DNA from: a virus
Taxonomy: Duplodnaviria; Heunggongvirae; Uroviricota; Caudoviricetes
Virus record (IMG/VR): IMGVR_UViG_2531839529_000006
DNA: 23,465 bases
Strand: one strand, 5' to 3'
In this document: positions 14,958 to 17,948 of the stretch, piece by piece
How the letters are laid out: every line of letters begins with the position of its first letter
Position numbering within the stretch: position 1 is the first letter of the stretch
Program-made: the position numbers and the translations under genes
The notes under the pieces: generated by a model
What the model saw: only the letters and a program-made list of their open reading frames with translations
Told to the model about the DNA's origin: nothing
Database searches by the model: none

Positions 14958-15033
14958 GGCCCTTTAGCTCAGTGGTGAGAGCGAGCGACTCATAATCGCC
15001 AGGTCGCTGGTTCAAATCCAGCAAGGGCCACCA
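14958..15033 (+). tRNA. tRNA-Ile2 (anticodon CAU, lysidine type), phage-encoded
   Basis: 76-nt cloverleaf GGCCCTTTAGCTCAGTGG...CTCATAA...GGTTCAAATCC...AAGGGCCACCA. 7-bp acceptor stem, anticodon loop CT-CAT-AA, encoded CCA. Resembles ileX/ileZ. Confidence 0.8.
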
Positions 15034-15040
15034 TCACATA

Positions 15041-15117
15041 CCGCCATTAGCTCATCAGGAAAGAGCGCCAGCCTTCGAAGCTGGTTGCGCGGGGTTCAAG
15101 TCCCCGATGGCGGTCCA
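15041..15117 (+). tRNA. tRNA-Arg (anticodon UCG)
   Basis: 77-nt cloverleaf: acceptor CCGCCAT/ATGGCGG, T-arm CGGGG-TTCAAGT-CCCCG, anticodon loop CT-TCG-AA, 3' CCA. Confidence 0.75.
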
Positions 15118-15130
15118 TTATCTGCATCAT

Positions 15131-15207
15131 GCGTTGTTAGCTCAGCCGGACAGAGCAATTGCCTTCTAAGCAATCGGTCACTGGTTCGAATCCAGTACAA
15201 CGCGCCA
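15131..15207 (+). tRNA. tRNA-Arg (anticodon UCU, rare AGA codon reader)
   Basis: 77-nt cloverleaf: acceptor GCGTTGT/ACAACGC, T-loop GGTTCGAATCC, anticodon loop CT-TCT-AA, 3' GCCA. Confidence 0.8.
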
Positions 15208-15442
15208 CACTTATTTTCCCTGGCTCGCTTTTGTGGGCCTTTTTTTTAAATGTCTCACAATTTAGGCGGTTGACTGTTGTCTGGTTTGCGGGGAGTTTGT
15301 TAAAAGAAACTGGCATGGTGAATCCCCCTGTGCGGAGGGGCAATCAGCGAGTAGGTATATGGGATAATCGCGGATTCAGGTGCTGGTACTGAATTCACCG
15401 GGAGGCACCCGGCACCATGCAATGGCACATAGCGCCACTCTC

Positions 15443-15470
15443 CAGCCCCTCTCCGGAGGGGCTGTTTATA
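15443..15470 (+). terminator. Intrinsic terminator-like hairpin
   Basis: 9-bp stem CAGCCCCTC/GAGGGGCTG with TCCG loop, followed by a T-rich tract. Confidence 0.5.
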
Positions 15471-15498
15471 TTGATTTTGTCAGATGTGAGTAAACTGC

Positions 15499-15834
15499 TT
15501 ATGGACTTTGTTGTTTTAGCCCATAAGGACATATTTGCAGAGTGCAACGGTTATTAAAGCATTCATTCAATACGTTATCTGTATTTGTAGGGCATTCCTG
15601 GCTGTTTTTGATTAAATTCCAGAATGTTTTATTGAATGGTACTACGTTGTAAATGGTTACAGGTAGCACTTTGTTATTGAGCATGATGCCTGTGTGAGTC
15701 AGTGTAAATATACTTTCAGGAGGTAAGAAAGCATCCGATTGATACCAGATTATTAATTTTATTTTACTCCATATGACTGAAAAAGATATTCCGCATGATG
15801 GCTGGATAACTGTATCAATCACAATCCACTTCAT
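15499..15834 (-). CDS. Hypothetical moron protein (111 aa) in an AT-rich island
   Basis: Minus-strand ORF with AGGAAA SD about 5 nt upstream of the ATG at 15834. Strongly AT-rich and opposite to late transcription. Occupies the slot after the tRNA trio where stx sits in Stx phages. Confidence 0.5.
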
Positions 15835-16079
15835 TTAGTTTCCTTGTTTATGCCTTGCTGGTGATGTTCTGAAAAGTATAAATGATATTTTTGATTGTAA
15901 ACCATAGAGCAGAATTATTTTTCTGATGTTGTTTATTGTTTATTTAAATGCAGGGTGGTTTATATCTCGTCTTGTAGTTTATCCATGCATATCTGCTTGA
16001 TGATGAGGTTTTTATTTAAGGTATGGTTTTGTGTTTTTTCTGTATTACATGTCAGGTATTTTAAAGAATCATTTTTCAG

Positions 16080-17948
16080 ATGGTGGAAAGAACCATGGCA
16101 TTTAAACACTATGATGTTGTCAGGGCGGCGTCGCCGTCAGATCTTGCGGAAAAGCTGACACATAAACTGAAAGAGGGCTGGCAGCCGTTTGGTAGTCCGG
16201 TGGCCATAACCCCTTATACCCTGATGCAGGCGATTGCAGCAGAAGGTGATGTGGTCGTCAGTGGTGCAACTGAGCCGGAGTGGTACTACGTCATCGTACT
16301 GGCCGGGCAATCCAATGCCATGGCTTACGGTGAAGGGCTTCCGCTTCCGGATTCTTACGATGCGCCCCACCCACGCATTAAGCAACTGGCCCGTCGCAAC
16401 ACAGTGACTCCCGGTGGTAAAGCATGCGCATTTAACGACATCATTCCGGCAGACCACTGCCTGCATGATGTTCAGGATATGAGCGCACTGAATCATCCGA
16501 AGGCAGACCTGAGCAAAGGGCAGTACGGCTGTGTCGGCCAGGGCTTACATATTGCCAAAAAACTGCTTCCGTATATCCCGAATAACGCGGGGATCCTGCT
16601 GGTACCATGCTGTCGTGGTGGTTCGGCATTCACCCAGGGCGCGGAGGGGACATTCAGTGCGGACACGGGGGCCAGCCAGGATTCGGCACGCTGGGGTGTG
16701 GGTAAACCGTTATATCAGGACCTGATCGCACGCACCAAAGCGGCATTACAGAAGAACCCGAAAAATGTGTTGCTGGCGGTGTGCTGGATGCAGGGCGAAT
16801 TTGACATGAGCGCTGCCACCTACGCACAGCAACCGGACCTGTTCACGGCCATGCTGAAGCAGTTCCGTACTGACCTTTCCGGATTTAACGCGCAGTGCCA
16901 TGGCGGCAGTGCTGCAGTTGTACCGTGGATTTGTGGCGACACGACGTATTACTGGAAAAACACATACGGCACACAGTATGACTCCGTCTACGGCGCGTAC
17001 AAAAACAGGGAGAGCGACAACGTTTTCTTTGTGCCGTTCATGACCGACGGTAACGGCAACAACACGCCCACCAACTTACCGGCAGAAGACCCGGATATTG
17101 CTGATGCAGGTTATTACGGCGCGCAATCCCGTAGTAATGGTAATTGGGTATCGTCAAATCGTCCGACACATTTCAGTTCATGGGCGCGCAGGGGCATTAT
17201 TTCGGATCGCCTGGCAACCGCTATTCTGAACGCAGCCGGGCGCACCTTAGCCTTCATTAGTGGTAAGGCACCGGAAATCAAACCCTCGCCCGGCGGCGAC
17301 ACGCCATCGGGGCCGTCTGAAGATGCATCCATACGCACAATCTCCCTGTTGCCGACAGCCGGAGACGCTGCTGCGCAGGGCTGGAGCATTAAGAATGGCG
17401 GAATTCAGTTGTCAGATGGTGTATTTAAGATCACCAAGCAGAGCAATAAAGCCTGGTCCCTGACGCGCCCGGTGGATGACGCAGTCTCCCTGCTGACACG
17501 GGGTGGCAGACTGAGCTGTAAGTTTCGACTGTCAGGCGCACTGACCAACAACCAGTTCGGTCTGGGAATTTATCTGTATACCGATGTAGCGTTACCTGAC
17601 GTCGTGGCGATGACCGGGACTGGTAACCCGTTCCTGATGTCGTTCTTCACCCAGACCACAGACGGCAAACTGAATCTGATGCATCACAGGAAAGCAGGAA
17701 ACACAAAGTTGGGCGAGTTCGGGAATTACAGTAACGACTGGCAGACGCTGGAGCTGGTGTTCACCGCCGGCAGTGCCACGGTTACTCCGAAACTGAATGG
17801 AGTGGCTGGCCCGGCATTCCAGGTCATAAAAGACAGTCTGACAGTGGGACTAAATGCACTGACGCTGACGGATATTACCAAAAATGCAACGTATGGCGTT
17901 GAGATAGAAAGTCTGGTGCTGGAGATAAATGCACCGGCATCATCATAA
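16080..17948 (+). CDS. NanS-p-like sialate O-acetylesterase (SASA/DUF303 domain)
   Basis: 622 aa. N-terminal esterase region with the GQSNA motif ([16 protein letters not shown]). Size and position upstream of the lysis genes match the prophage esterase gene found downstream of stx in Stx phages. An ATG at 16095 is an alternative start. Confidence 0.75.

Follow-up and report, generated by a model that had tools for sequence, protein, structure and literature searches.

Known RssB anti-adaptors and the layout of the locus

IraL is an anti-adaptor for RssB that stabilises sigma-S in exponential growth. [quoted passage not shown] K-12 IraM (YcgW; structure 8TWD) belongs to the same family and shares the PmrD-like N-terminal domain and the pattern of a cysteine-rich C-terminal tail, but it answers to Mg2+ starvation and PhoP from an unrelated promoter, and its gene lies beside e14 and ycgX rather than in an iraL-type neighbourhood. 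Convergent sRNAs have also been described at a moron site that lies downstream of pR' (Tree 2014, PMC4104026). There, the stretch from the moron CDS to the esterase ORF holds a forward-strand sRNA and, after it, a convergent element encoded on the other strand. STnc100 copies in Stx2 phages are reported to be expressed (PMC12370729; PMC4104026).

The window, that is the whole stretch of 23,465 nucleotides analysed here, represents with high confidence the region for late regulation and lysis in a lambdoid E. coli prophage without stx, in which a 111-aa ORF on the minus strand corresponds to iraL and two adjacent cargo slots lie between the tRNAs and the esterase. The genes are arranged in the order Q, methyltransferase, ileZ-argN-argO tRNAs, terminator, STnc100-family sRNA, iraL (antisense), nanS-p, S, R and Rz/Rz1. 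Late antiterminator Q is encoded at 12463-13284 on the plus strand (Pfam PF03589 Antiterm, E 4e-51; 'antitermination protein' in RefSeq in near-identical DNA) and is followed on the same strand by a DNA methyltransferase gene at 13859-14908 (Pfam N6_N4_Mtase, E 2e-44; PADLOC MTase_II, 554 bits). Further downstream on the plus strand, the lysis genes comprise a class II (P21-type) holin S (18098-18313; Pfam PF04971, E 9e-33), endolysin R, a lysozyme (18917-19450; Pfam Phage_lysozyme, E 3e-24), and spanin Rz (19749-20216; Pfam Phage_lysis, E 6e-48) with Rz1 embedded at 19969-20154 (E 2e-20). The first-pass annotation had given the order as Q, tRNAs, toxin slot, esterase, S, R and Rz, as in Stx phages. 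This synteny holds and holin, lysozyme, Rz and Rz1 are all present; however, the methyltransferase gene separates Q from the tRNAs, and an additional ORF of 185 aa lies between holin and lysozyme. Comparison of the whole 23.5-kb window with complete E. coli genomes returned no full-length identical record (best: 84% coverage at 98.5% identity), suggesting that the source prophage is a mosaic absent from that collection.

The closest neighbourhood is that of CFT073, likewise a lambdoid prophage with the tRNA trio, STnc100, iraL, nanS-p and holin. In contrast to the window, CFT073 carries an IS200 element instead of the methyltransferase gene between Q and the tRNAs, its nanS-p is truncated rather than intact, and the first cargo slot, empty in the window, is filled by a segment of roughly 640 bp encoding DUF3927. 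The order tRNA trio, terminator, first slot, STnc100, second slot (antisense), nanS-p and lysis genes is also common to Stx2 phages (933W/Sp5 type; 06-3462 was used) and Stx2c phages (1717, 2851). Unlike these phages, the window lacks stx in the first slot, carries iraL rather than AsxR in the second, and encodes a Q protein of another family, 273 aa long and carrying zinc-finger motifs. Its methyltransferase gene is full-length, whereas that of Stx2 phages is reduced to the 3' end, with homology to the window beginning at 14807.

The iraL gene and its promoter

The 111-aa ORF (15499-15834, minus strand) does exist where it had been called, in an AT-rich island placed at 15480-16080; indeed, the GC content drops to 0.30-0.38 over about 15450-16200 as compared to about 0.52 on either side. 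Its product had been listed as being of unknown function, which does not hold, as it has the same sequence as the IraL protein characterised in CFT073 (c1429; PMC4045071). All 111 residues agree with the translation of CFT073 gene C_RS06710, which sits in the potB prophage and has the same RefSeq accession (WP_000871291.1), and the two coding sequences differ by one synonymous substitution. The protein scores 162 bits against the IraM subfamily model NCBIfam NF007393 (cut-off 121), and residues 1-78 match IraM in PDB 8TWD (E 9e-32). Searches with the 111-aa protein yielded no Pfam family and nothing in PADLOC, and among PHROGs only PHROG 4407, labelled 'unknown function'; identification was settled by NCBIfam, PDB and RefSeq context. 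Hryckowian 2014 defines IraL by an identity to the CFT073 gene of 95% or higher across the entire coding sequence and of 96% or higher in promoter and upstream region, and the window gene falls within these bounds in its coding sequence as well as in promoter, upstream region and mapped start. RefSeq names the product 'IraM' and not 'IraL', which is a naming matter since the NCBIfam subfamily model spans both proteins.

Transcription of iraL could be placed by means of the published 5'-RACE sequence, ACATCACCAGCAAGGCATAAACAAGGAAACCA (PMC4045071), which in CFT073 is found exactly upstream of iraL. In the window, ACATCACCAGCAAGGCATAAACAAGGAAACCA matches the minus strand at 15836-15867 in 31 of 32 bases, i.e. 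with a single mismatch, where no match is expected by chance. The transcription start thus lies at 15867, leaving a 5' UTR (15835-15867, minus strand) with an AAGGA Shine-Dalgarno sequence. Read relative to this start, the sigma-70-type promoter (15875-15901, minus strand) consists of the -10 hexamer TATACT at 15875-15880 and the likely -35 hexamer TTTACA at 15896-15901, both of which are identical to CFT073 in the alignment. Counted from the transcription start, the promoter has two substitutions as compared to CFT073, at -1 and -28, and the 250 bp upstream of iraL contain seven substitutions with the -10 hexamer intact; taken as a whole, the promoter, start and upstream stretch agree with CFT073 at about 97-98%. 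A point mutation in the -35 region occurs in some strains, with unknown effect (PMC4045071). A simple promoter scan reported neither the mapped iraL promoter nor the putative tRNA promoter described below, and both promoters were placed by means of the published iraL start site and alignment. Downstream of iraL there is a hairpin lacking a U run on the minus strand.

Within the wider IraM/IraL/RssC anti-adaptor family, IraL is 62% identical to K-12 IraM and 75% identical to a paralogue in Stx2c phages. When the three diverged clades of the IraM family are aligned, 59 columns are invariant, among them four cysteines of the tail. Using the RssB-contact clusters of IraM as defined in PMC10844676, all five residues of cluster I, which contact the RssB N-terminal domain, are kept in IraL (I4, I6, W22, K26, I42), as compared to three of five in cluster II (T13S, L75I) and two of four in cluster III (H63N, I64V). 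The substitutions in clusters II and III are compatible with IraL binding RssB at the N-terminal domain only, as reported. Taken together, identity to the characterised protein and conservation of promoter and transcription start identify the gene as iraL, a prophage gene characterised before, and the locus adds nothing new on its mechanism. In the present host, too, the gene is presumably expressed and its product active.

Cargo slots and alternative readings of the locus

Between the tRNAs and iraL lies the gene for an STnc100-family prophage sRNA (15284-15473, plus strand), which the first-pass annotation had missed. It scores 132.4 bits with Rfam RF02076, above the cut-off of 47 bits, and is full-length, covering model positions 1-206 of 206; its own terminator, a hairpin at 15443-15464 with a U run, is part of the alignment. 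The element is also found after stx2B in the Stx2 phage L004, and in L003, L005 and CFT073. By position, on the forward strand after stx2B, it matches EcOnc27 at the site described by Tree 2014, to which it may be equivalent. The convergent partner differs, as it is the protein-coding iraL in the window rather than an anti-sRNA of 51-60 nt. No AsxR- or AgvB-like anti-sRNA was detected in or near the 3' end of iraL at E<=1.

The STnc100 gene separates two cargo slots. Slot A, the stx2AB junction of Stx2 phages, was located at 15246-15250 by blastn breakpoints and multiple alignment: window positions 14807-15245 correspond to 5399-5836 of L004, and homology resumes with window 15251-15341 at 7172-7262. 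Stx2 phages carry stx2AB here (about 1335 bp) and CFT073 its DUF3927 segment, the extra DNA of CFT073 falling between window positions 15219 and 15243. Slot B is the AT-rich iraL cassette (15465-16093, minus strand), that is all DNA from the STnc100 terminator to the esterase start codon, in convergent orientation between STnc100 and nanS-p. In relatives without iraL this cassette is absent: similarity to phi296 and the Stx2 phage ends at 15469 and restarts at 16094. Slot B contains iraL here, the anti-sRNA AsxR in Stx2a phages and the 75% identical IraL paralogue in Stx2c phages. The iraL cassette is 98% identical to the iraL region of CFT073. Of 5426 complete E. coli genomes, 1432 (about 26%) contain at least 80% of its length, with identities of 95% or above in nearly all of them. 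Thus, the interval from tRNAs to esterase presents itself as a two-slot cargo site, with toxin genes in one slot and regulators of host physiology (AsxR, IraL, the IraL paralogue) in the other, and this anatomy is the modest added value of the locus.

The two-slot arrangement bears directly on the view that the ORF stands in place of stx, i.e. that an ancestral Stx phage lost its toxin genes and gained an AT-rich ORF at the same site as a functional substitute. Such an exchange would fit the absence of stx and the flanks (tRNA trio, nanS-p and lysis genes), which Stx phages also have, at 76-96% identity. However, breakpoint mapping puts the stx2AB point at 15246-15250 and the iraL cassette at 15465-16093, with STnc100 between them in both kinds of phage; stx and the IraL paralogue in slot B coexist in Stx2c, Stx2a and Stx2k phages, as in the gene map of Stx2c phage 1717; and tblastn and blastn searches with stx2A and stx2B revealed no stx remnants in the window. 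A replacement is therefore very unlikely. As the slots are separate, absence of stx does not imply that anything replaced it. Of the hallmarks of Stx-converting phages, the tRNA trio and a downstream nanS-p are present, but there is no stxA/stxB downstream of pR' and the tRNAs. The other option raised at first, an stx-lacking relative, is borne out by the empty junction: the element is a lambdoid prophage devoid of stx with an empty toxin slot.

Two further readings concern the gene itself. Its RefSeq product name, the match to the NCBIfam IraM subfamily and the fold family shared with 8TWD could be taken to indicate IraM proper, that is a PhoP-dependent anti-adaptor induced by Mg2+ starvation as in K-12. 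We regard this as extremely improbable, because the 62% amino acid identity to K-12 IraM falls short of the 95% threshold, nucleotide identity to iraM loci (about 71%) is confined to the CDS, leaving the promoter unrelated, and promoter and start coincide with the ones mapped for iraL, a gene expressed in log phase without stress; moreover, some of the residues for contact with the C-terminal domain and the linker of RssB are replaced. That the gene is instead a silent or decaying relic, a chance ORF without a role in an AT-rich spacer, has a next to negligible probability. Lack of a Pfam family, the uninformative PHROG and the frequent silencing of AT-rich, horizontally acquired DNA would agree with a relic, but the protein is identical to one with demonstrated function and a mapped transcript, and conservation, which had been proposed as a check on the ORF, extends at 95% identity or more over >1400 genomes. 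The columns kept invariant across the three diverged clades, tail cysteines included, argue likewise against a relic.

Proposed role of IraL and the flanking genes

By analogy to the CFT073 protein, IraL, a small protein with the PmrD fold, would bind RssB, a response-regulator-like adaptor, and RssB in the complex would no longer hand sigma-S (RpoS) to the ClpXP protease. Stabilised RpoS may then prime the general stress regulon even during exponential growth. In this way, IraL shifts the RpoS level of the growing lysogen, with consequences for stress resistance and niche adaptation in uropathogenic E. coli and Shigella, as already published. Transcription would proceed from the gene's own sigma-70-type promoter, opposite to the Q-dependent late operon, and own promoter and direction suggest that iraL is a moron expressed in the lysogen. 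It is conceivable, albeit rather doubtful, that this placement serves the phage as well as the host by coupling the host RpoS level to the lysis-lysogeny state. Here, iraL lies antisense within the late transcript that depends on Q, and it converges on the STnc100 sRNA. In the lysogen, IraL would hold RpoS high, promoting stress tolerance and perhaps stable lysogeny; upon induction, late transcription antiterminated by Q would run into iraL and shut it off. The third IraM-family clade, present in Stx2c, Stx2a and Stx2k phages, could be the missing factor behind high log-phase RpoS levels in some O157 strains lacking iraL; a search of published work turned up nothing that connects RssB with Stx2c phages.

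Upstream of the slots, the tRNA trio with anticodons CAU, UCG and UCU was verified in full: ARAGORN called exactly three tRNAs, and Rfam tRNA scores of 59-72 bits compare to a cut-off of 29. These are tRNA-Ile2 (CAU, ileZ type; 14958-15033; 72.5 bits; annotated tRNA-Ile in RefSeq in identical DNA), tRNA-Arg (UCG, argN type; 15041-15117; 59 bits) and tRNA-Arg (UCU, argO type; 15131-15207; 70.1 bits), all on the plus strand. The acceptor pairs C4-G69 and C5-G68 expected for tRNA-Ile2 are present. On the same strand, the genes are preceded by a putative promoter, pT (14921-14949; TTGCAG, 17 nt, TATTAT), read from the sequence and aligning with 'pT; putative tRNA promoter' of phage 06-3462, and followed by an intrinsic terminator (15222-15247; 7-bp stem and T8 in a terminator scan), which is annotated in 06-3462 too. 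The rare-codon tRNAs had been suggested to support expression of the AT-rich cargo genes, which is partly supported. The AT-rich defence genes IetA and IetS contain many AGA, AGG and AUA codons; in iraL, 6 of 13 Ile codons are AUA, but its one Arg codon is none of AGA, AGG and CGA, so that only tRNA-Ile2 could matter for IraL. The match in IetA and IetS is to be read as a correlation expected from AT-richness rather than as evidence of dependence.

Downstream of iraL, the esterase gene (16095-17948, plus strand) had been described as NanS-p-like. Its domains, DUF1737, SASA and DUF6645 in Pfam, and its PDB matches to NanS (3PT5, E 9e-125) and to the NanS-p C-terminal domain (6YP6, E 1e-30) agree with this description, although the start was probably misplaced: the ORF opens at 16080 (622 aa), whereas homology to other phages begins at 16095 (MAFKHYDV...), the most likely start codon. 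The protein is 54% identical to Stx2-phage NanS-p and has the complete NanS-p architecture, i.e. an N-terminal DUF1737, a SASA/SGNH domain with the block-I serine in GQSN, and the NanS-p C-terminal domain. Judged by domains and homology, it is probably a NanS-p-type 9-O-acetyl sialic acid esterase of the Neu5,9Ac2 de-O-acetylase class, and the 13 residues of the esterase motif are conserved in alignments.

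Identity of the 111-residue reading frame

The minus-strand reading frame of 111 residues at 15499–15834, previously considered to be of unknown function, is iraL, a gene already known and characterised by experiment. This assignment rests on an identical protein in strain CFT073, a matching published mRNA start and a conserved promoter. The frame lies in an island with a GC content of 0.30–0.38 as compared to ~0.52 on either flank. No Pfam family was found for its product, and its PHROG is without annotation, but NCBIfam assigns it to the IraM anti-adaptor subfamily (162 bits; cut-off 121), and residues 1–78 match crystallised IraM (8TWD, E 9e-32). 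Chromosomal prophage DNA of many E. coli strains matches the stretch 14900–16100 at 100% identity, and the frame there corresponds to WP_000871291.1. The uropathogenic strain CFT073 encodes a protein of this accession as C_RS06710 in its potB prophage, and the two translations are identical at all 111 residues. C_RS06710 is iraL, formerly ycgW (locus tag c1429), located ‘on the potB genomic island’ (Hryckowian et al. 2014, PMC4045071). Its deletion lowers the log-phase sigma-S level and halves the sigma-S half-life in CFT073 and Shigella sonnei, and IraL shares 58.9% identity with K-12 IraM according to the authors’ alignment (PMC4045071).

The iraL mRNA was reported to start with ACATCACCAGCAAGGCATAAACAAGGAAACCA (PMC4045071). 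In an alignment of the iraL regions of the window and CFT073, this 32-mer is located directly 5’ of the CFT073 iraL frame, and it matches the window at 15836–15867 (minus strand) with one mismatch, where 0 chance matches are expected. Counting from the published start site places a -10 hexamer, TATACT, at 15875–15880 and a likely -35 element, TTTACA, at 15896–15901 (both minus strand), which are the same in CFT073. As compared to CFT073, the coding sequence carries a single, synonymous difference and the promoter two promoter-proximal substitutions, that is A for G at -1 (15868) and A for T at -28 (15895), the latter just downstream of the likely -35 element. A -35 variant of unknown effect occurs in some strains (PMC4045071). 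For the promoter conserved here, activity in log phase in the absence of stress has been reported. Similarity to iraM loci at the DNA level is limited to the coding region, and PhoP/Mg2+-responsive regulation as for iraM is therefore not to be assumed for iraL.

Separate slots for the toxin and iraL

The first-pass annotation had placed the 111-residue frame ‘in place of stx’ and left open whether the window represents an stx-lacking relative or a toxin replacement. Breakpoints were mapped against four relatives: Stx2 phage 06-3462 (L004), the stx-negative phage phi296 (L003), the CFT073 prophage (L002) and Stx2c phage 1717 (L005). Window 14807–15245, comprising the methyltransferase end, the tRNAs and a terminator, aligns with L004 5399–5836. 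The following L004 segment, 5837–7171, consists of stx2AB and its promoter, and homology restarts where window 15251 meets L004 7172. Thus, the toxin operon is an insertion at window 15246–15250, where the junction is simply closed and no trace of stx is detectable in the window. CFT073 carries a different insert of ~640 bp with a DUF3927 frame at this point.

Downstream of this junction, we found a gene for an STnc100-family prophage sRNA (Rfam RF02076; 15284–15473, plus strand; 132 bits, cut-off 47, full model) with a terminator hairpin at 15443–15464, which had been missed in the first pass. It is convergent with iraL and marks the border between the two slots. The element directly follows stx2B in L004, agreeing with its reported position ~75 nt downstream of stx2 (PMC12370729), and is also present in L003, L005 and CFT073. 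A partial pseudo-CDS that PGAP places opposite to it (15303–15428) is probably an annotation artefact.

Homology to phages lacking iraL ends at ~15469 and restarts precisely with the start codon of the esterase gene (16094/16095), which delimits the iraL cassette to 15465–16093. In an Stx2a phage, this position directly after STnc100 is instead occupied by the anti-sRNA AsxR on the opposite strand (L004 7412–7464), which is the ‘convergent sRNA’ layout that Tree et al. 2014 (PMC4104026) described for the pR’ moron site. In phage 1717, the tRNAs are followed in turn by stx2cAB, STnc100, an IraM-family gene and nanS-p; the IraM-family gene, gp43 (L005 4501–4824, antisense), encodes 107 residues with 75% identity to IraL. 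The breakpoints and the order in phage 1717 therefore indicate adjacent but distinct slots, which can both be filled at once. A replacement of the toxin by iraL was accordingly rejected, since the stx2AB insertion point and the iraL cassette are separated by STnc100 and stx2c coexists with the paralogue in phage 1717. The window is an stx-lacking relative whose toxin slot is empty, with iraL as a neighbour of that slot rather than a substitute for the toxin.

RssB contacts and distribution of iraL

RssB is the adaptor that hands sigma-S over to ClpXP, and anti-adaptors bind RssB to stop this hand-over, according to the literature on IraL and its paralogue IraM. In the IraM-RssB structure, a PmrD-like beta-barrel touches RssB via three residue clusters (PMC10844676), which we compared between IraL, the paralogue from Stx2c phage and K-12 IraM in an alignment without gaps. 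Cluster I, contacting the receiver domain, is invariant in all three (5/5; I4, I6, W22, K26, I42), whereas three of five residues are identical in cluster II, contacting the C-terminal domain (T13S, L75I), and two of four in cluster III, contacting the linker (H63N, I64V). This pattern would fit two-hybrid data in which IraL binds the RssB N-terminal domain only (PMC4045071).

By tblastn, true IraL (98% identical) appears in only four phage records, all non-Stx, while the 75%-identical paralogue occurs in ~40 records of Stx2c, Stx2a and Stx2k phages, which carry stx2 as well. Of 5426 complete E. coli genomes, 1432 carry the 624-bp iraL cassette with a coverage of 80% or more, nearly always at 95% identity or more, and 1228 of them have the tRNA-plus-iraL stretch. 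None of the 5426 genomes holds an identical counterpart of the whole 23.5-kb window (best match: 84% coverage, 98.5% identity), and the partial matches reflect the usual lambdoid mosaicism. All parts belong to described families, namely IraL (2014), NanS-p, the ileZ-argN-argO tRNAs, STnc100 and the pR’ moron site. The observation made in the first pass is confirmed and its interpretation partly supported; the feature was already known. Two statements were not found in the cited literature: that iraL occupies the convergent anti-sRNA position beside STnc100, and that a third IraM-family clade resides there in Stx2c-type phages. Both are modest anatomical additions. A literature search for RssB and Stx2c returned no paper linking the two and none tying the paralogue to RssB or RpoS. 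Some STEC strains show high log-phase sigma-S without iraL (PMC4045071); the Stx2c-type paralogue might explain high log-phase RpoS in iraL-negative O157 strains.

tRNAs, cargo genes and lysis region

The proposed tRNA trio is borne out by ARAGORN, which calls three tRNA genes and no others in the whole window, with anticodons CAT (14958–15033), TCG (15041–15117) and TCT (15131–15207), all scoring 59–72 bits with the Rfam model (gathering score 29). They are preceded by a putative promoter (TTGCAG, 17 nt, TATTAT; 14921–14949), conserved with a feature annotated as pT in an Stx2 phage. In identical DNA, RefSeq names the CAT species tRNA-Ile. Inspection of its sequence reveals the acceptor pairs C4-G69 and C5-G68 as well as the anticodon loop CUCAUAA, which are established features of a TilS substrate and thus denote tRNA-Ile2, not tRNA-Met (Ikeuchi et al. 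2005).

These tRNAs had been suggested to support AT-rich cargo genes, including an ‘ATPase-protease cassette’. The latter is the anti-phage defence pair IetA/IetS (RefSeq: IteA/IteS), an AAA ATPase and an S8 subtilase encoded on the plus strand at 6945–8099 and 8074–10338 (PADLOC, 474 and 995 bits) in the prophage early region (replication to nin). Codon counts in 23 frames of the window would fit the suggestion for this cassette (GC 0.40), in which AGA, AGG and AUA are very frequent: AGA/AGG/CGA account for 20/30 and 27/37 Arg codons, and AUA for 7/27 and 15/54 Ile codons. However, the sole Arg codon of iraL is neither AGA, AGG nor CGA, while AUA provides 6 of its 13 Ile codons, so that only tRNA-Ile2 could aid its translation. 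Pooled over the 23 frames, AUA, AGA and AGG reach 11.7, 10.8 and 7.5 per thousand codons, which exceeds the E. coli average severalfold. These counts show no more than a correlation, in keeping with the standard view that these phage tRNAs compensate for rare codons of phage and cargo genes.

Q (12463–13284) lies upstream of the tRNAs as proposed, but not directly, as a full-length DNA methyltransferase gene (13859–14908) intervenes; CFT073, the reference strain for iraL, has IS200C instead of this gene between Q and the tRNAs (L002 11700–12158), whereas the methyltransferase of the window is intact. The expected order of esterase and lysis genes holds. The 622-residue frame at 16080–17948 combines DUF1737, SASA esterase and DUF6645 domains of NanS-p type and is followed by a P21-type holin, lysozyme, Rz and Rz1. 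Among solved structures, it matches the NanS esterase (3PT5, E 9e-125) and the C-terminal domain of NanS-p (6YP6, E 1e-30), and it shares 54% identity and the GQSN active-site block with an Stx2-phage esterase. Translation probably starts at 16095, since homology to other phages begins there. In CFT073, a ~1.5-kb deletion leaves only a DUF1737 fragment of nanS-p (L002 14061–14407), window 16322–17805 being absent, whereas the gene is intact in the window. Between holin and lysozyme, a 185-residue frame (18317–18874, plus strand) without Pfam domain aligns with the C-terminal portion of phrog_1085 (unknown function); relatives such as EC931 and CFT073 carry a YdfR-family gene at this place instead. 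The early-left part of the window is a Rac/Qin-like region and encodes the antisense sRNA DicF (Rfam RF00039; 1118–1169, minus strand; 76.7 bits, full length). Genes annotated in the corresponding part of the prophage of EC931, a close relative, include dicB and ydfA/B/C-type genes.
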